This document shows positions 1 to 59,733 of a stretch of DNA of 64,000 nt, piece by piece. The first letter of the stretch is position 1; every line of letters begins with the position of its first letter. The translations under genes and the position numbers were made by a program. Location: positions 221,207-285,206 of the forward strand of contig NZ_JAPNKD010000014.1 in NCBI RefSeq assembly GCF_026626585.1, given 5' to 3'. This DNA comes from Nannocystis sp. ILAH1 (GTDB lineage Bacteria; Myxococcota_A; Polyangia; Nannocystales; Nannocystaceae). Under the pieces are notes generated by a model. It was not told the origin of the DNA, did no database searches, and saw nothing but the letters and a program-made list of their open reading frames with translations.

Positions 1-781
1 GCCGTGGGAGTACGTGCTCGGCGCGGCGGCCACTGCGATGCTGGTCAGCGCCCAGCCCGACGTGCTCGAGCTCGACCTCGACACCTGCGGCTACTGGACG
101 CAGGAGATCTTCGACACCTACCGCCCGACCTCGACGAAGGAGGTCGGCCACGCCGACACCAGCCTGTACGGCTACCTCGACGCGCTCGAGGGCGCCTACG
201 ACCACTTCGTCGCCCGCTCGGGCATGGTCGACTACGACGCCGAGTTCGCGCGCCACATCTACCACGTGCCGTTCGGCGGCATGACCTTCAGGGCCCACCG
301 GGCGCTGCTGCGCCGCGGTCCGCACGAGATGTCGCTGCGTGAGGCCAAGGCGCACTTCGAGCGCAAGTCGAAGCAGGCGCTGCGCTACAACTCGCGCTTC
401 GGCGGCACCTATACCTCGGCGACCTTCATCGCCATGCTCGGCCTCATCGACGCCGACCCCGAGCTGCGCGCGGGCGACAAGGTCTCGATCTTCTCCTACG
501 GCTCGGGCTCCTGCGCCGAGTTCTACCGCGCGACCGTCGGCGAGCGCGCGCGCGAGCAGGTCGCGAGCCAGCGCGTCGGCGCCGGCCTCGATCGCCGCAT
601 GCCGCTGACCATCGAGGAGTACGAGGCGCTCGAGCGCCAGCGCGCCGCCTTCATCGACCAGAGCGACTACGAGGTCGACCAGTCGGGCCTGCGCGGGCTC
701 TACGAGCGCGCCTACGCCGGCAAGGGCCGCCTCGTGCTCGACGCGGTGCGCGGCTTCCAGCGGGAGTACCGCCTGTCCTGA
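1..781 (+). CDS. HMG-CoA synthase-like beta-branching enzyme (HMGS/PksG/TaC family), 5' end truncated by window edge
   Basis: 255-aa C-terminal fragment in frame from position 2; HMGS-like C-terminal region including FSYGSGSCAEFY; immediately followed by two ECH genes and an ACP (classic HCS cassette order). Confidence 0.75.
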   Translation, partial: PWEYVLGAAATAMLVSAQPDVLELDLDTCGYWTQEIFDTYRPTSTKEVGHADTSLYGYLDALEGAYDHFVARSGMVDYDAEFARHIYHVPFGGMTFRAHRALLRRGPHEMSLREAKAHFERKSKQALRYNSRFGGTYTSATFIAMLGLIDADPELRAGDKVSIFSYGSGSCAEFYRATVGERAREQVASQRVGAGLDRRMPLTIEEYEALERQRAAFIDQSDYEVDQSGLRGLYERAYAGKGRLVLDAVRGFQREYRLS

Positions 782-889
782 GGCTCCGACCATGCCGCGC
801 ATGTCCCTCGCCACGCCGGCCGCGCCGCCTCTCGGCGTCGTGCGGCCCGGCCGCTCGTCCCCTCGTTTCTGCACTTCGGAGGTGATCGC

Positions 890-1645
890 GTGCGCGTCCG
901 CTGCGAAGAGGGCGAGCTGATCCATCGGCTGTTCCTCGGGGCAGGTCCCGGAGGACATGTCGCATTGGACACCGACGGGATCGCCGCGCTGGCCGACGCG
1001 GTCGAGCAGGCGGTCGCCGGCCCGGCGCGCGCGCTGGTGATCGCCAGCGAGGGCCCCGAGTTCTGCGCCGGCATGGACCTGGCGGCGGCGCTGCGGACCC
1101 CGTCGGCGCAGATGCGCGAGGCGATGCAGCGCTTCGCCGGCTGCCTCGAGCTGCTGGCGAGCGCGAAGCTGGCGACCCTCGCGGTGGTCACCGGCGCGGC
1201 CAGCGGCGGCGGGGTCGGCCTGGCGGCCGCGTGCGACCTGGTGGTGGCGGCGCCGACCGCCACGTTCGCGCTGCCGGAGCTGCGCTACGGGCTGGTGCCG
1301 GCGGTGATCTTCCCGGCGCTCGAGGCCCGGATCGGCGCGCGGCGGACCCGGCGGCTGGCGCTGACCGGCGAGCTGGTGACTGCCGCCCAGGCCGAGCCGT
1401 GGGGTCTCGTGGACGTGGTCGCGGACGACCCGGACAAGGCGCTGCGCGGCCTCTTGCGCTCGTTGCTGCGCGCGCGCCCGCAGGCGGTGGCGACGCTCAA
1501 GCGGATCACCGGGCCGGCGGGGCAGGGCGGGGTGGCCCAGACCGCGGCCGACCTCGAAGACCCCGAGCTGCGGGCGGCGCTGGCGGCCCTGCTGGCCGAG
1601 GGGCAGGCGCCGCCGTGGTTCGCCAGGCTGAAAGGACAGGAATGA
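890..1645 (+). CDS. enoyl-CoA hydratase/crotonase family, ECH1-like (dehydratase of HCS cassette)
   Basis: GTG start 8 nt after GGAGG; crotonase oxyanion-hole region ALVIASEGPEFCAGMDL; stop overlaps next start (ATGA). Confidence 0.8.
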   Translation: MRVRCEEGELIHRLFLGAGPGGHVALDTDGIAALADAVEQAVAGPARALVIASEGPEFCAGMDLAAALRTPSAQMREAMQRFAGCLELLASAKLATLAVVTGAASGGGVGLAAACDLVVAAPTATFALPELRYGLVPAVIFPALEARIGARRTRRLALTGELVTAAQAEPWGLVDVVADDPDKALRGLLRSLLRARPQAVATLKRITGPAGQGGVAQTAADLEDPELRAALAALLAEGQAPPWFARLKGQE

Positions 1646-2418
1646 ACGCGCATGTCCCAACAGACAGCCTCGTCGAGGTGACGCTCGAGCGCGACGGCGT
1701 GGCAGTGCTGACCATGCGCGACGCGGCCGGTAAGAACGCGTTCAGCCGGGCGTTCGCGGCCGCGTTGACGCGCGCGCTCGAGGACCTCGGCCGGCGCGCC
1801 GACGTGCGCGTGTGCGTGGTCGCTGGCTTGCCCGAGGCGTTCTCCGCCGGCGGCGACCGCGACGTCCTGCTCGGCCTCGCCGACGGCACGATCGCCCCGT
1901 ACGACCTGCTGCTGACGCGGGCGCTGCTCGAGGTGCCGGTGCCGACGATCGCCGCGATGGCGGGGCCCGCGGTCGGCGGCGGCCTGGTGTTCGGCCTCGC
2001 CTGCGACATGGTCGTGATGGCCCGCGAGAGCCGCTACGGCGCCAACTTCATGGACCTCGGCTTCACGCCGGGGATGGGCGCGACGCGCCTCGTGCAGTTC
2101 GCGTTCGGCGAGTACGTCGGGGCCGAGATGCTGTACGGCTCGCAGTACTTCCGCGGCGAGCAGCTGGCGGGGCGCGGCCAGGTCAACGCGGTCGTGCCGC
2201 GCGTCGAGGTGCTGCCGCGGGCCCTCGACATGGCGGCGCGGATCGCCGACAAGCCGCGGGCTGCGCTGCTGTTGCTCAAACGTGCGCTGGCGTTGCCGCG
2301 CCGACGGGCCTTCGAGGAGGCGCGCACGGTCGAGTCGATGATGCACGAGGTATGCTTCGCCGACCCGGAGACGGTGGCGCGGATCCGCACGAACTACGGG
2401 CCAGGCCAGGGAGGATGA
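1642..2418 (+). CDS. enoyl-CoA hydratase/crotonase family, ECH2-like (decarboxylase of HCS cassette)
   Basis: ATG at 1642 overlaps upstream TGA; crotonase fold (AFSAGGD, GGGLVFGLACDMVVMA); the six-frame ORF 1231..2418 is an upstream extension in the same frame. Confidence 0.8.
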   Translation: MNAHVPTDSLVEVTLERDGVAVLTMRDAAGKNAFSRAFAAALTRALEDLGRRADVRVCVVAGLPEAFSAGGDRDVLLGLADGTIAPYDLLLTRALLEVPVPTIAAMAGPAVGGGLVFGLACDMVVMARESRYGANFMDLGFTPGMGATRLVQFAFGEYVGAEMLYGSQYFRGEQLAGRGQVNAVVPRVEVLPRALDMAARIADKPRAALLLLKRALALPRRRAFEEARTVESMMHEVCFADPETVARIRTNYGPGQGG

Positions 2419-2421
2419 CGC

Positions 2422-3237
2422 TTGCTCAATGACTTCAAGGACAGGGTCGTCTTGATCACGGGCGGGACGCGCGGCATCGGCCTCGCGTGCGCGCTCGCGT
2501 TCGGGCGCCAGGGTGCGCGCACGGTGCTGACGCACCGCTGGGGCTCGGCCGACGAGGACGAGCTCAAGGCCCGCTTCATCGCCGCCGGAGCCCCGGCGCC
2601 GCTGGTGATCGAGGCCGACGCGTCGCGCGAGGAGGACACCGACAAGCTGACCGCGCGGCTCAAGGAGGAGTGCGACGGCGTGTGGGCGTTCATCAGCAAC
2701 GTCTGCGTGGTCCAGCGCGGCGAAGGGCCGGAGAAGCACACCCGGCGCGCGCTGTACAAGAGCCTCGAGTACTCGAGCTGGCCGTTCGTCGGCTACCTGC
2801 AGGCGCTGCACGCCGCGTTCGGCCGCTACCCCCGCTACGCGCTGGCGATGTCGTCCGACGGGCCCGACACGCACTACCCCGGCTACGACTACGTGGCGGT
2901 GGCCAAGGCGGTGCTGGAGACGTTCGTGCGCTACATGAGCACGCACCTGTACGAGCACGGCTGCATCGTCAACGCCCTGCGCACCCGCCAGGTGATGACC
3001 GAGAGCTACGAGCAGATGTTCGCCGCCCAGCAGCGCGAGCTGGCGGGCAAGTTCCCCGAGTTCGCGTGCACCGTCGACGAGGTCGCCGACACGACCCTCG
3101 CGCTGTGCAGCGGGCTGTTCGACGCGATGGGCGGGCAGGTGCTGACGCTCGACCGCGGCGCGGCGTTCGTCGACAACGTCGCCACGCTCGGGCCGCGGCT
3201 CGTCGGCGGCAGCGACAAGGAAGGAGCTCCGGCGTGA
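2422..3237 (+). CDS. FabI-like SDR enoyl-[ACP] reductase (paralog 1)
   Basis: TTG start after GGGAGGA; Rossmann motif ITGGTRGIG; active-site Y-x6-K (YDYVAVAK) and RYMS segment resembling E. coli FabI [20 protein letters not shown]. Confidence 0.7.
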   Translation: MLNDFKDRVVLITGGTRGIGLACALAFGRQGARTVLTHRWGSADEDELKARFIAAGAPAPLVIEADASREEDTDKLTARLKEECDGVWAFISNVCVVQRGEGPEKHTRRALYKSLEYSSWPFVGYLQALHAAFGRYPRYALAMSSDGPDTHYPGYDYVAVAKAVLETFVRYMSTHLYEHGCIVNALRTRQVMTESYEQMFAAQQRELAGKFPEFACTVDEVADTTLALCSGLFDAMGGQVLTLDRGAAFVDNVATLGPRLVGGSDKEGAPA

Positions 3238-4049
3238 TCCTCCGCAACGACCTCAAGGGCAAGGCCGTCATCGTCACCGGCGGGACGGCGGGCATCGGCC
3301 TGGCGACCGGCCTGTTGTTCGGCAAGTACGGCGCACACGTGTACCTGACGCACCGCTGGGGCTCGGCCGACGAGGACGAGCTGCGGGCTCGCTTCGAAGC
3401 CGCGGGCGCGCCGGCGCCGACGATCGTCGAGGCCGACGCGTCGCAGGACGAGGACACCGAGGCGCTGATGGAGGCGGTCAAGCGCGACCACGACGCCGTG
3501 TTCGCGCTGATCAGCAACGTGTCGTTCGCCCACGTCAGCAAGTCGCACGAGGACCTCGACAAGAAGAGCTTCCTGCGCAGCCTCGGCTACAGCGCGTGGC
3601 CGTTCGTCGGCTACCTGCAGGCCATCCGCGAGACCTTCGGTCGCTGGCCGCGCTACGCGGTGGGAATGTCGTCGCGCGGGCCCGAGTACTTCCTCCCGGG
3701 CTACGACTTCGTGGCCGCGAGCAAGACCGTGATGGAGACCTTCTGTCGCTACCTCACGGCAGATCTGCTCAGTGAGGATGTTCGCATCAACATCCTGCGC
3801 GCGAACCCGGTCGAGACTGCATCGCTGGAGGCCACCTTCGGGCCCGACTTCGTGCCGTTCTGCAAGAAGTACTACTCGGAAGGCTGGTTCATCGACCCCG
3901 ACGAGGTCGCGGCCGCGGCGCTGGCCCTCTGCAGCGGCCTCATGGACGGCGTCAAGGGGCAGATTCTGCTACTGGACAGGGGCCTCGGTTTCGCCGACAA
4001 CGTCGTTCGCCTGTTTTCGGCGCGCGAGCGTCACGGGCTGAGTTTTTGA
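3234..4049 (+). CDS. FabI-like SDR enoyl-[ACP] reductase (paralog 2)
   Basis: GTG at 3234 overlapping upstream stop (GTGA); VTGGTAGIG; YDFVAASK (Y-x6-K); clearly alignable with the upstream paralog over its full length (e.g. LTHRWGSADEDEL, SWPFVGYLQA, LALCSGL shared); the six-frame ORF 2487..4049 is a frame artefact that merges into this gene. Confidence 0.7.
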   Translation: MILRNDLKGKAVIVTGGTAGIGLATGLLFGKYGAHVYLTHRWGSADEDELRARFEAAGAPAPTIVEADASQDEDTEALMEAVKRDHDAVFALISNVSFAHVSKSHEDLDKKSFLRSLGYSAWPFVGYLQAIRETFGRWPRYAVGMSSRGPEYFLPGYDFVAASKTVMETFCRYLTADLLSEDVRINILRANPVETASLEATFGPDFVPFCKKYYSEGWFIDPDEVAAAALALCSGLMDGVKGQILLLDRGLGFADNVVRLFSARERHGLSF

Positions 4050-4112
4050 CCTTCGCTTCCTGCGAGATTCGCTGCGGGCAACCTGCACCGCGCCCACCAA
4101 GGAGAACCGAGA

Positions 4113-4379
4113 ATGAGCACCCGCGATGATGTCTTGGCCGTCGTCAAGCGCCACCTCGTGGACACCGTCGAAGGGATCGATGCGGCCCAGGTCGACCCCG
4201 CCAAGTCGATGAAGGACCTCGGCGCCAACAGCCTCGACATCGTCGAGGTCGTCTCCTGCAGCATGCGCGAGCTCAAGGTGAAGGTCCCCCGCGCCGAGCT
4301 CAACAAGTTGACGAACATCGACGAGCTCGTCGACCTGCTGCACAAGACGGTGCAAGAGAAGCAGGCCGCCGCGTCCTGA
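4113..4379 (+). CDS. discrete acyl carrier protein
   Basis: 88 aa, LGANSLDIVEVV phosphopantetheine-attachment Ser motif (DSL), acidic helix-rich. Confidence 0.85.
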   Translation: MSTRDDVLAVVKRHLVDTVEGIDAAQVDPAKSMKDLGANSLDIVEVVSCSMRELKVKVPRAELNKLTNIDELVDLLHKTVQEKQAAAS

Positions 4380-4394
4380 GCGCCGTCGGCGTGT

Positions 4395-4432
4395 GTCCCC
4401 GCGGACAGGGTCCCGGGGACATGCGCGATCGG
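4395..4432 (+). terminator. GC-rich hairpin after ACP gene (GTCCCCGCGGAC-AGG-GTCCCGGGGAC), no U-tract
   Basis: inverted repeat read directly; position immediately 3' of operon. Confidence 0.3.
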
Positions 4433-4749
4433 CCAGACACATTCGCGCCCGCGCTGCGCTCGTCGCAGCCCGGGCGCGCTCGTCGTACCTGGACCTCGCG
4501 CGTCGTTCAGCCGCGTGGCTCGAGCGGAGTCGTGCGCGGCGCTGGTAGCTGGGCGAGCCACGTGACGCGCCTGGCCTTCGGGCCAGGTGCGGACTTCGGG
4601 CGGAAAACGCGCGGTCACACTTTGCCCGAGGGGGCAGGTGCGGACTTCGGGCGGGCCAGCGCTGCGGCGAGGATGCGTCTGACCTTTGGGCCAGGTACGC
4701 GGCTCGGTTGAGCCCGCGCGTCGGCACCCAGTCACACCACGCTTGCAGC

Positions 4750-5553
4750 TCAGGCGGGCGGAAGTCGGCAGACCAACGCCTCGGCGCGGCGCCAGGCCGA
4801 CACGACCAGGAGCGCCCACACGTTGAGCCCGAGCGCGACCGCGAGTGCGGCTGTCCAGAAGGACAGGTCGAGCCGGACCGCCGCGGCGGCGGTGGCGACG
4901 TAGAGCAGCGCGAGGTGAGTGTCGTGGCTCAGCGGTGCGGCCATGCGCAGGGGCGGGGCCAGCAGGGAGCGGGCAGCGCCGGGGGTGGGACGGGGGCCGG
5001 TGTGCTCCGGTCCGAGCAGCGCGGCGGCGATGTCGTGGAACACAGCGGGGCCGAGCCCGCGGGACAGCGCGGTCACCGAGGGCCGCGGCGAGGGCGGCGC
5101 TGCGTCGCTGCCACCGCCGGTCAGGTCGCGGAACCGGCGACGCAGCTCGGCGTGGAGCCCGACGTGGATCAGCGCGCTGACGAGCGCCACCGACGCGAGG
5201 GTGCAGGCCCACGGGTTGGCGGGCGCGGCTCGCAGCGTCAGCGCGACCCAGAAGGCGGCGCCGATCGCAAACTCGAGCGTGCCGGCCTCGGCCTCCGCGG
5301 CGCCGGCGACGAGGCGGCGACAACGGCTGGCGACGGTGAACGCGAACAACAGCCAGGCGGGGAAGATCCAGTCGACGCCGCTCGGCGCGGCCAGCAGCAC
5401 GGCGACGGCGCCGGTGAGGCCGACCACCAGTCCGGCGAGGGTGAGCAGCTCGACGCTCGGCGCCGGTCGCACCCGCTCGAGGACCCACGCTGCGAGCGGC
5501 CGATGGAGGTGGCGATCGAGAGTTCCCTCGGTGATCGGATCGTCGTCGGCCAT
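4750..5553 (-). CDS. hypothetical polytopic membrane protein
   Basis: several long hydrophobic helices; no recognised motif. Confidence 0.45.
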   Translation of the reverse strand: MADDDPITEGTLDRHLHRPLAAWVLERVRPAPSVELLTLAGLVVGLTGAVAVLLAAPSGVDWIFPAWLLFAFTVASRCRRLVAGAAEAEAGTLEFAIGAAFWVALTLRAAPANPWACTLASVALVSALIHVGLHAELRRRFRDLTGGGSDAAPPSPRPSVTALSRGLGPAVFHDIAAALLGPEHTGPRPTPGAARSLLAPPLRMAAPLSHDTHLALLYVATAAAAVRLDLSFWTAALAVALGLNVWALLVVSAWRRAEALVCRLPPA

Positions 5554-6541: not shown

Positions 6542-7471
6542 TCAGCGACCCTTCAGCGCGGCGATCAGGCGCGGCTGGAGCTCGGGGATGATGACGAACA
6601 CCCACCCGAGCTGCGCCTTGACGCCGTCGACGAGGATCGCCCAGCGGTGACGGTCGTCGAGCTCGATGACGAAGATCAGGAGGCCATTGTCGCCTTCGAT
6701 GATGAACTTGTTGATGCCCTTGGCGAGGGCATCCTCCGAGCGGGTCAGCGCGTTGTGCAGCTGCTCGGAGAGGCGGTTGAACATGGCGCACGCCTTCGGC
6801 GCCGAGTTGATGCCCGCGAGCGACATGCCCGAGGCTTTGCTGATGATGTCGACGCTGATGAGGCCGCCCATGAGGTGGTCGTCGAGCTCCTCGAGGATGG
6901 CCTTCACGACCTTGAGGTCCATGTCTGACAGCTCCTTGTCGCGCGCTGCAACGTTGGGGGCGGCCGCGTAGGCCGGCGTCGGTGTAGAGACGGGCAGCGG
7001 CGGAAGTGGCGGGACGGTGACCGGCGCAGCTCGCTGCGGCTTCTCGATCACCGGCACCGGCGGAGGGGAGGGCGGCGTCGCGGCGCGTGGCGGTGGCTCG
7101 CTTCGCGGCGGTGGCTCGCTACGCGGCGGCTCGCTGCGTGGCGGCGGCTCGTTGCGCGAAGCCTCGTCGCGCTGACGAGCTCGGTCCATCAACAACGCGA
7201 CGATCGAGGTGTGTCGTACCGTCTGCGGGCAGTTCTCGGGCAACTGCGAAGACGAGACGCTGCCCTCGCGCCAGTCGAGGATCGTGTTGACGGCGTCGTC
7301 ACCCTGGGCCGCGCCGGTCTCGGCGTGGACGAGGTTGCCGCCCTGGAAAAACATCGCGCCGACGCCATGCGGCGACTCGACGGACAGCTTGATCGACATG
7401 CGCGATGTCTGCGCAAGTTGCAGGATGTCCCAAAGTTCAAATCCACCGATCTGGGCGATCGTGGTTGCCAT
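6542..7471 (-). CDS. DUF4388 domain / Pro-rich linker / Roadblock-LC7 (MglB-like) domain protein
   Basis: N-term IAQIGGFELWDILQL (DUF4388-like), EPPPRSEPPRSEPPPR repeats, C-term roadblock-like KVVKAILEELDDHLMGGLISVD; start taken at MATTIAQ (ORF track start 7549 is an upstream extension). Confidence 0.65.
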   Translation of the reverse strand: MATTIAQIGGFELWDILQLAQTSRMSIKLSVESPHGVGAMFFQGGNLVHAETGAAQGDDAVNTILDWREGSVSSSQLPENCPQTVRHTSIVALLMDRARQRDEASRNEPPPRSEPPRSEPPPRSEPPPRAATPPSPPPVPVIEKPQRAAPVTVPPLPPLPVSTPTPAYAAAPNVAARDKELSDMDLKVVKAILEELDDHLMGGLISVDIISKASGMSLAGINSAPKACAMFNRLSEQLHNALTRSEDALAKGINKFIIEGDNGLLIFVIELDDRHRWAILVDGVKAQLGWVFVIIPELQPRLIAALKGR

Positions 7472-7856
7472 TATTCGCCTCCCCGTGGCCCACGTGGGCC
7501 GCGACCGCGATCGGAGGGGCAGCTCCCACCGATGTTGGTCTGGGTACAATACCGCGCCTGCTCATATCTTTGGGACAGGTTCTTCACGCGAGCCTGCGGC
7601 GACGCCATCTCAGCCCAGGTCCGTGGGGCCGTAACGGCGTCGCGTGTGTCCCGTCTCACTCGGATTACGAGGTTTGGCGTCCGAACTAGCATCCGCGCTC
7701 GCCGGGCAAGCCTGCGGTCAAGGCTTTTCGCCGGCCACGCTAACACCAGCTTCGGAAAAAAGCTACGTTGGAGACACCGGACACGCTGCGCGCTGAGTGC
7801 GCAGCGCCGCACCCGTCTCTCGGGACCTGGCCGCCCGGCCCTGCTCGCATCCCGCG

Positions 7857-10010
7857 TCACCACAGCAGGGCGTAGACCGACGTCGCCAGCAGATTGGCGA
7901 TCGCCAGGGGCATCGCGGCCCGCTCGAGAAAGAAGAGAGCGGCGCGCGCACGCGAGCCGGTGGCCGACGCGTGCAGCCGCTGCACGAACCACACGACCGC
8001 AGCGATCTTCGCCGCCGCCACGACTGCGCCGATGAACAGCACGAGGCCGTGGCCGCTGCCGGCGAGTACCGTCGCGGGCACACCACCGCCGAGGAAACAG
8101 GCGACGAACGCCGCCGCGAAGGCGAGCCGCTCGAGCCGTCCTGCCGGCGGCGCGGCCGCGACCGCGAGGGCGACGGCAGCGGCGATCGGTTGCACGAAGA
8201 TTCCCCAGGCGGGGGGGATCGCAGCACCGCCGACGAGCCCCGCTGCTTGCTCCCCCACGAGCTGCCGTGGATCGAGGGTGCCAAAGGCCAGCAAAGGGCC
8301 GGCGAATGCGGCGGCGAGGGCGAGGTCGCGCGACGCCAGGCGGCGGGCCAGCGCAGCCCGGTCGACGAGGCGACCAAGACCGGCGAGCACGAGGGCGACG
8401 AGATAGACGAGCCAGCCTTCGCCGACGGCGATCAGCGACAGCGAAGCACCTCCCCGTCCCGCGGCGCACTGCTCGACGTCCGCGGCGGAGAGGCTGCTGC
8501 CGAGGCCGTCGAAGCACAGGCCCGGACCGAACGGGAACAGCGCCAGGACGGCCACCACCGGCAGCCAGGCGGTCCAGTTCAGCCGGGTGCGGCGCGTCGA
8601 GATCCACGCCAGCGCGACGAGCGCGAGCGCCAGGGCGGTGCGGATCGCCGTGCGCCGCAGATCGCTCGCGAGATCGGGTGGCTCCCAGCGGAGCTCGACG
8701 ATCTGGGGCGCCTCTCCCGCCGCGAAGAGGAGGCGCGCGCTGCCGGAGCCGGAGGCGCCGGTGCGATCGAAGTGGTCGCGGTCGACGCGGAGGCGCAGGC
8801 TCACGGCTCCGCCAGCAGCGATCTCCCGCGGGTACTCGCGGTTCTCGATCGAGAAGGCGCCCCAGTCGGGGGTGCGGGTGTCGAAGCGGATCCGCGTCAA
8901 CGGGACGGGCGCCGCGCCGTGATTCACGAGTCGCAGCTCGAGACGCTGCGCCGCCGGCGTGAACACCAGCGTCCCCGGTTCGGCGCGCACTCCCGTCGGA
9001 GGGGCCCCGCAGCCGAGCCCGAGCGCGAAGAAGAGGACGCAAGGCGCTGCGGGCGAGAGCGCGGCGCGGAGGAAGTTGCGACGAGGGAGCGGCGAGCTCG
9101 CGTGCGCGACGCGGGCGAGTGGGAGCGGCGAGACGACCGAAGTGGACAGCCGCAGGGCGACGTCCTGCGACAGGGACTCGGGCGAGGAGCTCGCGCTCGC
9201 GTCGAAATTGCGAAGAAGCGGCGATGCGATCTCGGGCGGGCTCACCGGCGTCTCGTCGACACCACGCATGACCGAAGCGGGCGGAAGCGGCGACGCGACC
9301 TCGGGCCGGGTGCTCGCGCTTGCCTCGAAGTCGCGAGGAAGTGGAAGCGGTGACGCGGCCTCGGGCGAGGAGCTCGCCAGCGTCTCGTCGACACCACGCA
9401 TGACCGAAGCGGGCGGAAGCGGCGACGCGACCTTGGGCCGGGTGCTCGCGCTTGCCTCGAAGTCGCGAGGAAGTGGAAGCGGTGACGCGGCCTCGCGCGA
9501 GGAGCTCGCCAGCGTCTCGCCGACAACTTGCATGACCGAGGCGGTCGACCGCAGCGACGCGACCTCGAGCCGAGTGCTCGCGCTTGCTTCGAAGCGGCAG
9601 AGAAGTGGAAGCGGCGACGCGGCCTCGCGCGGCGAACTCGTCGGCGTCTCGTCGACCGAAGCGGACGAGCGCAGCGACGCGACCTCAAGCCCAGTGCAAG
9701 TGCTTGCTTCGAAGCAGCGAAGAAGTAGAGGCGGCGAGACGACCGCGAGCGAGGAGCTCGCAGACATCTCGTCGACGCCTGGCATGGCCGAAGCGGGCGG
9801 GTGCAGCGGGAAGTCCTGCCCCGCGAGCTCGAGCGAGGAGCTCGCACGGACCCTGAAGCCGCGAAGCGGCGACGCCAGCTCGCGCGACACGACGTCCAGC
9901 GCCGGGCCGTCGCAGGCGCTTTGGGCCAGGTTACTCGCCGAGACACCCAGCGCGACGACGCCGCTCGCCGACGCGGGCGCAGGCGAGGCGGCGGCGCGCG
10001 GGCGGATCAT
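7857..10010 (-). CDS. polytopic membrane protein with N-terminal Ser/Pro/Ala-rich tandem-repeat region
   Basis: ATG at 10010 overlaps stop of upstream small TM gene (ATGA); 40-44-aa repeats in frame; then a lipobox-like signal-anchor segment (FFALGLGCG) and >=8 TM helices. Start uncertain because all frames are open here. Confidence 0.45.
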   Translation of the reverse strand: MIRPRAAASPAPASASGVVALGVSASNLAQSACDGPALDVVSRELASPLRGFRVRASSSLELAGQDFPLHPPASAMPGVDEMSASSSLAVVSPPLLLRCFEASTCTGLEVASLRSSASVDETPTSSPREAASPLPLLCRFEASASTRLEVASLRSTASVMQVVGETLASSSREAASPLPLPRDFEASASTRPKVASPLPPASVMRGVDETLASSSPEAASPLPLPRDFEASASTRPEVASPLPPASVMRGVDETPVSPPEIASPLLRNFDASASSSPESLSQDVALRLSTSVVSPLPLARVAHASSPLPRRNFLRAALSPAAPCVLFFALGLGCGAPPTGVRAEPGTLVFTPAAQRLELRLVNHGAAPVPLTRIRFDTRTPDWGAFSIENREYPREIAAGGAVSLRLRVDRDHFDRTGASGSGSARLLFAAGEAPQIVELRWEPPDLASDLRRTAIRTALALALVALAWISTRRTRLNWTAWLPVVAVLALFPFGPGLCFDGLGSSLSAADVEQCAAGRGGASLSLIAVGEGWLVYLVALVLAGLGRLVDRAALARRLASRDLALAAAFAGPLLAFGTLDPRQLVGEQAAGLVGGAAIPPAWGIFVQPIAAAVALAVAAAPPAGRLERLAFAAAFVACFLGGGVPATVLAGSGHGLVLFIGAVVAAAKIAAVVWFVQRLHASATGSRARAALFFLERAAMPLAIANLLATSVYALLW
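9100..9830. repeat. tandem repeat, ~6 units of 120-132 bp (two near-identical 132-bp copies at 9281 and 9413)
   Basis: read directly; all unit lengths are multiples of 3; encodes ...ASPLPLPRDFEASASTRPEVASPLPPASVMRGVDET... units. Confidence 0.8.
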
Positions 10011-10354
10011 GGCGCGCGGGTCAGCGAGGGCCACGCGATCGCGGTCGCCAGACCCAGCAGACCCAGGCCGGCGGCGCTGACCCAAAGGGCAGGTCCTTCC
10101 GGACATGTCGTGCTGGACAGGCAGACCGCGGCGGTCGGCGCGAACAGGACCAGGGCCAGCGCGAGCGCGAAGCCGAGGCCGGCCAGCGCGAGGAGGCCGC
10201 CGGTGTCGACGGGCTGACGCGGGCGCAGCTGAACCAGGCTCTCGCCGGCGTCGGGCGCGGCCTGCTGCCTCGCACGCGCGCGGACCAGGCCGGCGAGGAC
10301 CCCGATGAGCCCGACGGCTGCGACGAGAGGCAGGTAGTCGAGCAGGGGGCTCAT
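10007..10354 (-). CDS. small membrane protein (115 aa, 3 TM)
   Basis: hydrophobic segments; sits between the macro-domain gene and the repeat membrane protein with overlapping stop/start. Confidence 0.45.
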   Translation of the reverse strand: MSPLLDYLPLVAAVGLIGVLAGLVRARARQQAAPDAGESLVQLRPRQPVDTGGLLALAGLGFALALALVLFAPTAAVCLSSTTCPEGPALWVSAAGLGLLGLATAIAWPSLTRAP

Positions 10355-58619: not shown

Positions 58620-58707
58620 CTGCGGGTCCAGGTTATCCCGACGGTGCTGCGCTGTCGTGTCGGGCTTGAGGCGCAATGCCGCGCGCCTGTATCATCCCGC
58701 CGATCGC

Positions 58708-59733
58708 ATGACCGTCCTCGTCACCGGCGCCGCGGGTCACATCGGCGCGAATCTAGTCCGTACGTTGCTGTCTCGCGGCGAGCGCGTCCGCGTGCTCGTC
58801 CGCAATTCCCAGCGCGCGCTCGCGGGGCTCGACGTCGAACGCGTCACCGGCGACGTGCGCGATCCGGACGCGGCGCGCCGCGCGACCGCGGGAGTCGACG
58901 TCGTGTATCACCTCGCGGCCCAGATCTCGATCTCGGGCGACCCGCGGGGGCTGGTGCGCGCGGTCAACGTCGACGGCGTGCGCTCGATCGCCGAGGCGGC
59001 GCTGGCCGCGGGCGTGCGCCGGCTGGTCCACTGCAGCTCGGTCCACGCGTTCGACCTCTACCGCGAGGGCACGAGCGGCGTGGAGGTCGACGAGCGCTGG
59101 CCGCGGGTGCCCGACGAGCCGAGCCACTTCGCCTACGACCGCTCGAAGGCGGCCGGCGAGCGGGCGCTCCGCGAGGTGATGGGTCGCGGCCTCGACGCTG
59201 TGATCGTGCATCCCTCGGGCGTGATCGGGCCGTACGACTTCGGACCGTCGCGCATGGGCCGGATGTTCCTGCAGCTGTACCGGCGGTCGCTGCCGAGCCT
59301 GATCGACGGGGCGTTCGACTTCGTCGACGTGCGCGACGTGGTGGCCGGGATGCTGGCCGCGCAGGCCCGCGGCGAGAACGGCGAGAACTACCTGCTGACG
59401 GGGCACACGGTGCACGTGCGCGACATCGGAGCTATCGCCGAGGCGATCACCGGCGTGAAGCCGCCGCGGCTGGTGGCGCCGATCTGGTTCGCGCGCGTCG
59501 GGGTGCCGCTGTTCGGGGTCGCCGGCGCGGTGATGCGGCAGGAGCCGCTCTACACCCACGAGTCGCTGTCGGTGCTGGCCACGCGCGCGCGCTTCGACCA
59601 CGGCAAGGCCGAGCGCGCGCTCGGCTACACGGTCCGGCCGTTCGCGGACAGCGTGCGCGACATCTACGAGTGGTTCGACGCCGCGGGGATGCTCGGCAAG
59701 AAGCGCCTGGCGAGCAGCGAGACGCGGATCTAA
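58708..59733 (+). CDS. NAD(P)-dependent epimerase/dehydratase (SDR extended family)
   Basis: VLVTGAAGHIGANLV, YDRSK. Confidence 0.75.
   Translation: MTVLVTGAAGHIGANLVRTLLSRGERVRVLVRNSQRALAGLDVERVTGDVRDPDAARRATAGVDVVYHLAAQISISGDPRGLVRAVNVDGVRSIAEAALAAGVRRLVHCSSVHAFDLYREGTSGVEVDERWPRVPDEPSHFAYDRSKAAGERALREVMGRGLDAVIVHPSGVIGPYDFGPSRMGRMFLQLYRRSLPSLIDGAFDFVDVRDVVAGMLAAQARGENGENYLLTGHTVHVRDIGAIAEAITGVKPPRLVAPIWFARVGVPLFGVAGAVMRQEPLYTHESLSVLATRARFDHGKAERALGYTVRPFADSVRDIYEWFDAAGMLGKKRLASSETRI

Follow-up and report, generated by a model that had tools for sequence, protein, structure and literature searches.

The first 4,379 nucleotides of a 64,000-nucleotide (64 kb) stretch of DNA from Nannocystis sp. 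ILAH1, hereafter the window, carry six genes that form one half of what is, in related genomes, an operon resembling a type II fatty acid synthase (FAS). They encode a 3-hydroxy-3-methylglutaryl (HMG) synthase (HMGS), two crotonase-fold proteins (ECH1 and ECH2), two paralogous short-chain dehydrogenases/reductases (SDR-A and SDR-B) that are predicted enoyl-acyl carrier protein reductases (ER), and a stand-alone acyl carrier protein (ACP). All six lie in tandem on the plus strand, where a first-pass annotation of the window had also placed them:

2-781, + strand: 3' part of the HMGS gene, 259 codons plus stop (Pfam HMG_CoA_synt_C, 67.5 bits)
890-1645, + strand: ECH1, crotonase-fold, presumed dehydratase of the HMG-type intermediate; GTG start with GGAGG upstream (Pfam ECH_1, 107.5 bits)
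1642-2418, + strand: ECH2, decarboxylase of the PksI/CurF-ECH2 type (Pfam ECH_1; NCBIfam PRK07110, 269 bits against a cut-off of 215)
2422-3237, + strand: SDR-A, predicted FabL/FabI-like ER, paralogue 1; TTG start (Pfam adh_short_C2, 92 bits)
3234-4049, + strand: SDR-B, predicted FabL/FabI-like ER, paralogue 2; GTG start (Pfam adh_short_C2, 112 bits)
4113-4379, + strand: stand-alone ACP (Pfam PP-binding, 36 bits)

The HMGS open reading frame (ORF) crosses the left edge of the window, and its N-terminal ~154 codons lie outside. Stops and starts had been described as overlapping at every junction, which is the case for two of the five, ECH1/ECH2 (ATGA, 1642-1645) and SDR-A/SDR-B (GTGA, 3234-3237); the remaining three are gaps of 108 nt (HMGS/ECH1), 3 nt (ECH2/SDR-A) and 63 nt (SDR-B/ACP). 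The cluster ends at position 4379, and the genes beyond the ACP are unrelated and on the opposite strand.

Gene order across genomes

The closest genome is that of Nannocystis radixulma: it is colinear with the window to either side of the cluster, at 92% DNA identity, and its SDR-B is 96% identical. Upstream of HMGS, and on the same strand, N. radixulma has genes for a FabG-like ketoreductase (KR), a FabF-like ketosynthase (KS), a FabZ/ApeI-like dehydratase (DH), a FabD-like acyltransferase and a class I/II aminotransferase, followed by a divergently oriented extended SDR. The order of the operon, which has 11 genes, is α-oxoamine synthase (AOS), malonyl-CoA:ACP transacylase (AT), FabZ/ApeI-like DH, FabF-like KS, FabG-like KR, HMGS, ECH1, ECH2, ER, ER and ACP. 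Twelve independent loci, drawn from no fewer than five phyla (Myxococcota, Planctomycetota, Acidobacteriota, Gammaproteobacteria and Bdellovibrionota), have nearly this gene set and order, and the arrangement is not a product of chance. The loci are those of N. radixulma (L001), a Nannocystaceae metagenome-assembled genome (MAG; L002), a gammaproteobacterial MAG (L004), an Acidobacteriota MAG (L005), Ca. Albibeggiatoa (L007), a Bdellovibrionales MAG (L008), a Planctomycetota MAG (L082), a JGI metagenome contig (L083), Minicystis (L084), a Nannocystis-like contig (L085), Plesiocystis pacifica SIR-1 (L086) and Nannocystaceae strain ST9 (L087). In a scan of genome contigs, which a generic SDR motif swamped, seven of the 80 loci were true relatives. 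The AOS gene is adjacent in nine of the 12 HMGS-containing loci, and this linkage is kept where the order varies.

No modular polyketide synthase (PKS) is present within 10 kb of the operon in the 12 loci. The flanks examined in the same loci contain no nonribosomal peptide synthetase (NRPS), thioesterase, FabH or KS0 (a KS with the active-site Cys replaced, which provides an acetyl-ACP donor from malonyl-ACP). There is no acyl-ACP ligase inside the operon, and no CoA-transferase-like gene in any operon locus. The first-pass annotation had interpreted the six genes as the edge of a biosynthetic cluster, with a KS, a donor ACP and a PKS presumed upstream. In N. radixulma and the other 11 loci, the upstream genes are instead KR, KS, DH, AT and AOS, beyond which unrelated genes follow, and neither PKS nor NRPS genes are among them. 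The cassette is one component of a discrete, type II FAS-like operon, not of a large polyketide antibiotic cluster.

The predicted β-branching enzymes and their carrier protein

In giant modular PKSs, β-branching cassettes built around an HMG-CoA synthase (HCS) are a known accessory. When compared with solved relatives, the HMGS fragment in the window scores 150 bits with CurD, 124 with PksG, 109 with Myxococcus MvaS, and ~80 with the Enterococcus and Staphylococcus MvaS proteins, a ranking that is unchanged for the full-length N. radixulma orthologue (93% identical; CurD 268 bits, PksG 233, MvaS 223). The fragment aligns with CurD and PksG to its last residues through a conserved C-terminal tail (AGKGRLVL.A...F.R.Y), while the MvaS alignments end ~45 residues earlier, at about residue 212-214 of the 259-residue fragment and at ~369 of the full orthologue. 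The His of the catalytic Glu-Cys-His triad (HVPFGG) lies in the window; the triad is conserved across the orthologues, with Glu and Cys present in N. radixulma and in all nine that cover that region. Judged from its sequence, HMGS is of the ACP-dependent polyketide (PksG/CurD) type and not of the MvaS type of primary metabolism, in agreement with its first-pass placement.

A similar picture emerges for ECH2, which among solved structures scores highest with PksI (154 bits) and CurF ECH2 (138 bits), generic crotonases reaching at most 84 bits. All 11 orthologues keep the catalytic His, the residue changed in PksI entry 4q1j, as part of an MH motif. Two Lys residues mutated in other PksI entries are missing from ECH2 and likewise from CurF, and since CurF is without them too, they do not define the PksI-type family. 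By these comparisons, ECH2 is a decarboxylase of the PksI/CurF type.

The assignment of ECH1 is less direct. Its best NCBIfam model is the PksH-type PRK07112, at 120 bits and under the cut-off of 250, and PksH itself (3hp0; 66.7 bits) ranks 16 among solved structures, with generic hydratases placed higher. ECH1 is also the least conserved gene of the operon (38% identity within Nannocystaceae). In ECH1 the second crotonase Glu is kept (LPE), with a Gly at the position of the first. The dehydratase role of ECH1 is presumed mainly from the fixed place of its gene between HMGS and ECH2, with some support from the conserved Glu.

The small ACP encoded in the window is the sole ACP of the whole operon. 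It scores 59.6 bits with NCBIfam PRK07117, which describes ACPs of polyketide β-branching loci (cut-off 79), compared with ~34 bits for AcpP models; with CurB it scores 37.4 bits, level with FAS ACPs (38.2). The motif GA(N/S)SLDIVEVVS is kept in 11 orthologues. In HCS systems, acceptor ACPs are flagged by a Trp that follows the phosphopantetheinyl Ser, and a Trp six residues after this Ser is absent here, where the ACP reads S-L-D-I-V-E-V-V. The sole KS of the operon has an intact Cys-His-His triad in all ten orthologues, and its best model is the PksF-type PRK07103 (356 bits, cut-off 445). A KS0 is not found in the ten orthologous loci. The upstream KS (as a KS0), donor ACP and PKS expected from the first-pass annotation are therefore not borne out by these loci.

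Taken with the HCS cassettes of bacillaene (PksF/G/H/I with AcpK), curacin (CurB-F), myxovirescin and mupirocin, the operon shares an HMGS with the CurD/PksG tail, a presumed ECH1, a PksI/CurF-type ECH2, the canonical gene order, and a small free ACP that is as near to donor ACPs as to FAS ACPs. It differs by lacking a KS0 (with the Cys-to-Ser replacement), a modular PKS and an acceptor ACP flagged by Trp; its host is a type II FAS-like set of discrete enzymes, and release would be by an AOS. HMGS and ECH2 qualify, on sequence similarity, as members of HCS enzyme families. The cassette as a whole misses two features that define canonical HCS systems, a KS0 and an acceptor ACP embedded in a PKS. 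The most fitting description is a cassette that works in the manner of HCS systems and sits in a new host architecture.

With these enzymes being of a PKS-associated type, it could be argued that the genes form a trans-acting β-branching cassette for a modular (trans-acyltransferase) PKS located upstream or elsewhere, as the first-pass annotation would have it. We give this proposal almost no credence. There is no PKS within 10 kb on either side in the 12 loci and no KS0, and the ACP is without the acceptor Trp. Furthermore, the operon has a complete FAS-like set of its own, and its borders are formed by unrelated housekeeping genes.

The paired Y-x6-K reductases

SDR-A and SDR-B are 49-50% identical to each other. 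Both combine a glycine-rich cofactor motif (TGGTRGIG in SDR-A, TGGTxGIG in SDR-B) with a Y-x6-K motif (YDYVAVAK and YDFVAASK, respectively), and Y-x6-K is present in each of the 22 ER sequences from the 12 loci. In SDR-B, Y157-x6-K164 is invariant in 21 sequences, and Val160 aligns with the catalytic Tyr of classical SDRs; the Tyr of this family is found three residues upstream of the Val that replaces the classical one. A Y-x6-K motif with the classical Tyr replaced is a hallmark of enoyl reductases of the FabI/FabL/InhA type. The best ER model for both proteins is FabL (NF005975), at 71 and 74 bits and far under the cut-off of 328, and FabI models reach at most 63 bits against cut-offs of at least 299. 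The proteins share with FabL and FabI the Rossmann-fold SDR architecture, Y-x6-K and the FabL-style TGxxxGIG cofactor motif, but are only ~25% identical to solved FabI proteins and form a narrow, separate clade. They are closer to FabL than to FabI, which corrects their earlier description as FabI-type. It is plausible that SDR-A and SDR-B work like FabL or FabI; by curated criteria they are members of neither.

An exhaustive HMMER search of 1.84 billion sequences returned 99 representatives of the SDR-B-type family at E<=1e-30 and 377 at E<=1e-10. SDR-A falls in its own clade together with the first ER of the other Nannocystaceae and the Planctomycetota loci. Two ER genes occur in 11 loci, arranged as ER-ER-ACP or ER-ACP-ER, and the paralogues form separate clades in each arrangement; the exception is the Albibeggiatoa locus, which has HMGS yet a single ER. 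SDR-A and SDR-B diverge most in the segment that matches the FabI substrate-binding loop, including a two-residue indel. In P. pacifica SIR-1 (L086:18109-19821) the two are fused into one protein of 570 aa, with the A-type part N-terminal and the B-type part C-terminal, each with TGGTKGIG and Y-x6-K. Two more representatives are fused in the same sense of carrying both ERs (P0361, 565 aa; P0362, 520 aa). By Rosetta-stone logic, these fusions hint at joint action of SDR-A and SDR-B.

An informative relative without HMGS and ECH genes is found in a Myxococcales MAG (L006:209-5616), where a PKS-type KS, a KR, one Y-x6-K ER, an ACP, an AOS and a FabA-like DH are encoded in this order. This may be an ancestral, straight-chain version of the system. 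The reductive loop at this locus is complete only if its SDR is an ER, which therefore provides an indirect argument for the ER role. Taken as a whole, the retained pairing, the separate clades, the divergent loop segment, the fusions and the single ER of the Myxococcales locus make a case for the SDRs as the enoyl reductases of the reductive loop. The same patterns hint at a link between the second copy and the branching cassette, in which that copy would either specialize in the trisubstituted β-methyl enoyl intermediate or be an obligate partner. In HCS/PKS systems, saturation is carried out by ER domains of the medium-chain dehydrogenase/reductase (MDR) type or by trans-acting ERs of the flavin mononucleotide (FMN) type, whereas the operon would use FabL-like SDRs.

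The structural comparison is more equivocal. An AlphaFold (AF2) model of SDR-B (pLDDT 89.6) confirms the SDR fold. Its best Foldseek match by E-value is Thermus FabI, but classical SDRs superpose equally well, so that the fold does not discriminate, and an aminoacetone/aminopropanol dehydrogenase (template modelling (TM) score 0.80-0.85) lies above ER in TM-score. Such neighbours, together with the missed FabL and FabI cut-offs, would be accommodated if SDR-A and SDR-B were carbonyl reductases, for example amino-ketone reductases resembling 3-ketosphinganine reductase, in which case the double bonds at the branch and from every DH step would remain in the chain. Several features make this very unlikely. 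The invariant Val at the classical Tyr position, with the Tyr three residues upstream, gives the enoyl-ACP-reductase signature and not that of a carbonyl reductase. The SDRs are retained in the AOS-less loci of Minicystis and Albibeggiatoa, the Myxococcales locus would be left without an ER, and separate classical or extended SDRs exist for ketone reduction.

Extra FabI-like genes can also be imagined as self-resistance against a FabI inhibitor. We rejected this idea, since neither SDR is close to housekeeping FabI or FabL and both invariably accompany the operon. They are found in this kind of operon throughout, usually as a pair or a fusion.

Predicted release enzyme and product, and flanking genes

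The AOS was analyzed through its N. radixulma orthologue, for which the nearest solved structures are the serine palmitoyltransferase (SPT) of Sphingobacterium (S. multivorum) and the Thermus AOS, tied at ~246 bits. Because there is no thioesterase, AOS is the only plausible release enzyme. We favor a reading in which a type II FAS-like line with a built-in β-branching cassette makes a saturated, methyl-branched acyl-ACP that an SPT-like AOS would release as an amino-ketone, i.e., a sphingolipid-like base. On sequence and gene content, we estimate the probability of this reading to be slightly above one half (about 0.55). The saturated methyl branch had been proposed in the first-pass annotation, and is a reasonable chemical prediction for a CurD/PksG-type HMGS, a PksI-type ECH2 and SDRs with the enoyl-ACP-reductase motif.

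In the corresponding mechanism, AT would load malonate onto the dedicated ACP, and the single Cys-His-His KS would prime itself by decarboxylating malonyl-ACP before elongating the chain. At one defined β-ketoacyl-ACP stage, HMGS would add an acetyl-derived carboxymethyl group, after which dehydration by ECH1 and decarboxylation by ECH2 would give a β-methyl enoyl-ACP, whose double bond would be reduced by a FabL-like ER. Ordinary reductive cycles would be run by KR, DH and ER. The two ER paralogues, which are fused into one protein in Plesiocystis, could each take one kind of double bond or could work as a hetero-oligomer. A decarboxylative Claisen condensation of the branched acyl-ACP with an amino acid, catalyzed by AOS, would then yield a branched α-amino ketone. 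In Nannocystaceae, this could be reduced by the extended SDR and N-acylated by a GNAT-fold acyltransferase to a ceramide-like lipid. These steps are drawn from homology and gene content, and the enzyme activities are predictions.

Regarding the position of the branch, one option is that HMGS acts on acetoacetyl-ACP to give isovaleryl-ACP and an iso-branched product, which would place the chemistry of the first-pass annotation within a different pathway. A mid-chain branch may be formed instead. The proposed ACP-based counterpart of the myxobacterial alternative isovaleryl-CoA route would in this respect describe one possible placement of the branch.

The gene neighborhoods contribute further evidence on the type of product. 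An extended SDR (3Beta_HSD/NmrA/NAD_binding_10) is divergent from AOS in N. radixulma, the Nannocystis-like contig, P. pacifica and strain ST9, and the window itself encodes a paralogue at 58705-59379 (+ strand; 34-35% identical over ~200 aa). A GNAT-fold protein of 387-408 aa (Acetyltransf_1/Acetyltransf_6) is located beside AOS in P. pacifica and strain ST9, and the Nannocystaceae MAG has a partial copy; no NCBIfam model matches it. In Nannocystis its gene is found away from the operon: in Nannocystis exedens (L088:10001-13278), a GNAT homologue forms a triad with an ACP (93 aa) and an AMP-binding enzyme (589 aa). This is the arrangement expected of an N-acyltransferase fed by an acyl-ACP synthetase, and by analogy it recalls the AcpR/AasR pair of Caulobacter. 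The presence of a GNAT-fold protein and an extended SDR beside the operon in Nannocystaceae points to a ceramide-like lipid, although the evidence is circumstantial. In other lineages the accessory genes within or next to the operon, again of lipid type, are different, and include a gene of the fatty-acid hydroxylase (FA_hydroxylase) family in the Acidobacteriota locus (L005:11720-12715), a flavin amine oxidase and a 245-aa protein without Pfam match in the gammaproteobacterial MAG (L004:1636-3708), an AAT/peptidase-C45-type acyltransferase in the Planctomycetota locus (L082:1-663), a lipocalin-like protein in Albibeggiatoa (L007:10805-11239), and a classical SDR in the JGI contig. This distribution suggests that the same core product is tailored differently by lineage.

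Several observations weigh against the favored reading. The AOS scores under every NCBIfam cut-off (bioF 325 against 426, SPT-CFB 297 against 640; 230-297 bits against cut-offs of 500-670 for the SPT models), and its gene is not adjacent in three of the 12 loci (Minicystis, Albibeggiatoa and the Nannocystaceae MAG). No NDUFA9 chain came up at E<=1e-5 when PDB sequences were searched with the extended SDR, and we dropped the label CerR for this protein on that account. The GNAT-fold protein is a candidate bCerS-like N-acyltransferase by fold family and gene position. With no KS0 present, a supply of acetyl-ACP for HMGS has to be assumed. The weak resemblance of ECH1 to PksH and the equally good superposition of classical SDRs on the SDR-B model belong here as well. 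Finally, the upstream half of the operon was read from N. radixulma and the other orthologous loci and not from the Nannocystis sp. ILAH1 genome.

The non-adjacent AOS of three loci would be less of a difficulty if the operon were a starter-unit factory, in which acetoacetyl-ACP is converted to isovaleryl-ACP for the general FAS and its iso-odd fatty acids, and AOS has a separate role. This is the proposal nearest to the first-pass annotation. Acetoacetyl is the ancestral acceptor of HMGS, and HMGS, ECH1, ECH2 and one ER suffice chemically for isovaleryl-ACP. On the other hand, the operon's own AT, KS, KR and DH and the second ER would be superfluous, and no transferase that could move the acyl group to AcpP is present. 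AOS is also translationally packed in the operon in nine of the 12 loci, with a linkage that outlasts changes in gene order. Overall, we regard a starter-unit function as improbable.

A short product is also unlikely, if by a hair less so. After one or two elongations, AOS would here release a small branched amino-ketone as precursor of a CAI-1/LAI-1-type α-hydroxyketone autoinducer or of a pyrazine. AOS enzymes such as CqsA do make signal precursors, and the AOS scores 198 bits with the autoinducer-synthase model; the lineage-specific accessory genes, such as the amine oxidase and the lipocalin-like protein, would fit a signal as well. The SPT, BioF and KBL models, however, score far above the CqsA model for this AOS, and the presence of two ERs in a full reductive loop points to repeated cycling. 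Moreover, the FA_hydroxylase, the GNAT and AAT acyltransferases, and the ACP and AMP-binding partners of the GNAT homologue point to a long-chain lipid.

A more elaborate variant would be an iterative, mevalonate-independent and ACP-bound route, in which the branching arm (HMGS, ECH1, ECH2 and one ER) alternates with the ordinary arm (KR, DH and the other ER) to put a methyl group on every fourth carbon, so that AOS would release a phytanyl-like sphingoid base with multiple methyl groups. Two kinds of double bond would arise in such a scheme and would account for the need for two co-evolving and sometimes fused ERs with different substrate loops. The sequence data give no specific support for repeated branching, and we consider this variant highly unlikely. 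A biotin-type pathway through pimeloyl-ACP and BioF was discarded: HMGS, ECH1 and ECH2 give a methyl branch and not a straight C7 diacid, and ECH2 is a decarboxylase.

Returning to the branched sphingolipid-like base, the closest parallel in overall logic is SgaAB of Pseudomonas fluorescens MYb115, where an iterative type I PKS and a KBL-like AOS produce long-chain sphinganines. Common to both are a dedicated synthase, a fully reduced chain on its own ACP, off-loading onto an amino acid by a KBL/SPT-like enzyme that depends on pyridoxal phosphate (PLP), and the lack of a thioesterase. Unlike the operon, with its discrete type II enzymes, HCS cassette and two ERs, SgaA is one multidomain type I PKS without β-branching.

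The myxobacterial alternative isovaleryl-CoA route consists of MvaS, LiuC, AibA/AibB (a glutaconate-CoA-transferase-like decarboxylase) and the MDR-type AibC. If the branch is introduced on acetoacetyl, the operon would follow the same sequence of HMG-type condensation, dehydration, decarboxylation and reduction to an isovaleryl thioester. The carrier is, however, ACP and not CoA, the HMGS is of the PKS type, ECH2 has the crotonase fold, and the reductases are SDRs. The enzymes that define the CoA route (CoA-type MvaS, AibA/B and AibC) are absent from the operon loci, and the operon is an analogue of this route and not a homologue.

Known routes to bacterial sphingoid bases draw on the general fatty-acid pool or, in a single case, on an iterative type I PKS. 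The operon would be a third arrangement, a compact type II system with its own β-branching cassette, an unusual ER pair and an SPT-like release enzyme, and it is conserved in myxobacteria, planctomycetes, acidobacteria, Beggiatoa-like gammaproteobacteria and Bdellovibrio-like predators. We found no description of the architecture in the literature, including a 2025 survey of conserved Myxococcota biosynthetic gene clusters, in a search that most subscription-journal papers fell outside. If the favored reading is correct, the operon would define a new route to long-chain bases or amino lipids with methyl branches, compounds that could serve as environmental biomarkers, and the branched lipids would be made without branched-chain amino-acid primers. 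It would also provide an 11-gene system for HMGS, ECH and ER chemistry on one free ACP, of a size that suits direct heterologous expression.

Comparison with the Caulobacter ceramide pathway (Spt, AcpR, AasR, bCerS and CerR; PMC11324152, PMC11087976) reveals both similarities and differences. The Spts of Alpha-, Beta- and Gammaproteobacteria prefer the acyl chain on a specialized ACP (PMC11324152), and co-location of Spt, bCerS and CerR is a signature of bacterial sphingolipid synthesis (PMC11334938, PMC11087976). As in this pathway, the operon has an SPT-like AOS by a dedicated ACP, and in Nannocystaceae genes for an N-acyltransferase-fold protein and an NAD-binding reductase are adjacent. 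The acyl-ACP of the operon would, however, be built de novo and be methyl-branched, instead of being loaded from free fatty acid by an acyl-ACP synthetase. In addition, the AOS is under the NCBIfam SPT cut-offs, and the extended SDR is without an NDUFA9-type match.

At the 3' border of the cluster, the ACP gene is followed by genes for a 267-aa protein without Pfam match, a 73-aa protein and a PduO-type adenosyltransferase. The G+C content across the window is 67-76%. A promoter and terminator scan of window positions 1-5000 gave no match, and no terminator-like hairpin was found there. The intergenic region 3' of the ACP (4443-4699) contains short direct repeats. A 24-nt unit, GGGCCAGGTGCGGACTTCGGGCGG, is found at 4580 and 4631, a 28-nt unit at 4564 and again at 4672, and a 20-nt tandem repeat at 4443-4485. 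A 23-mer of these repeats is absent from the rest of the 64 kb. Further into the window, a PatA_N-type gene (6542-7549, - strand) contains an 18/33-nt tandem repeat at 7085-7158 that encodes a proline-rich linker of the PPRSEPP type. A tandem repeat with a period of 132 nt (9215-9800; 4.6 copies, 79% matches) lies inside the minus-strand ORF 7857-10106 (749 aa), in which it encodes a repetitive Ser/Pro/Ala-rich segment.

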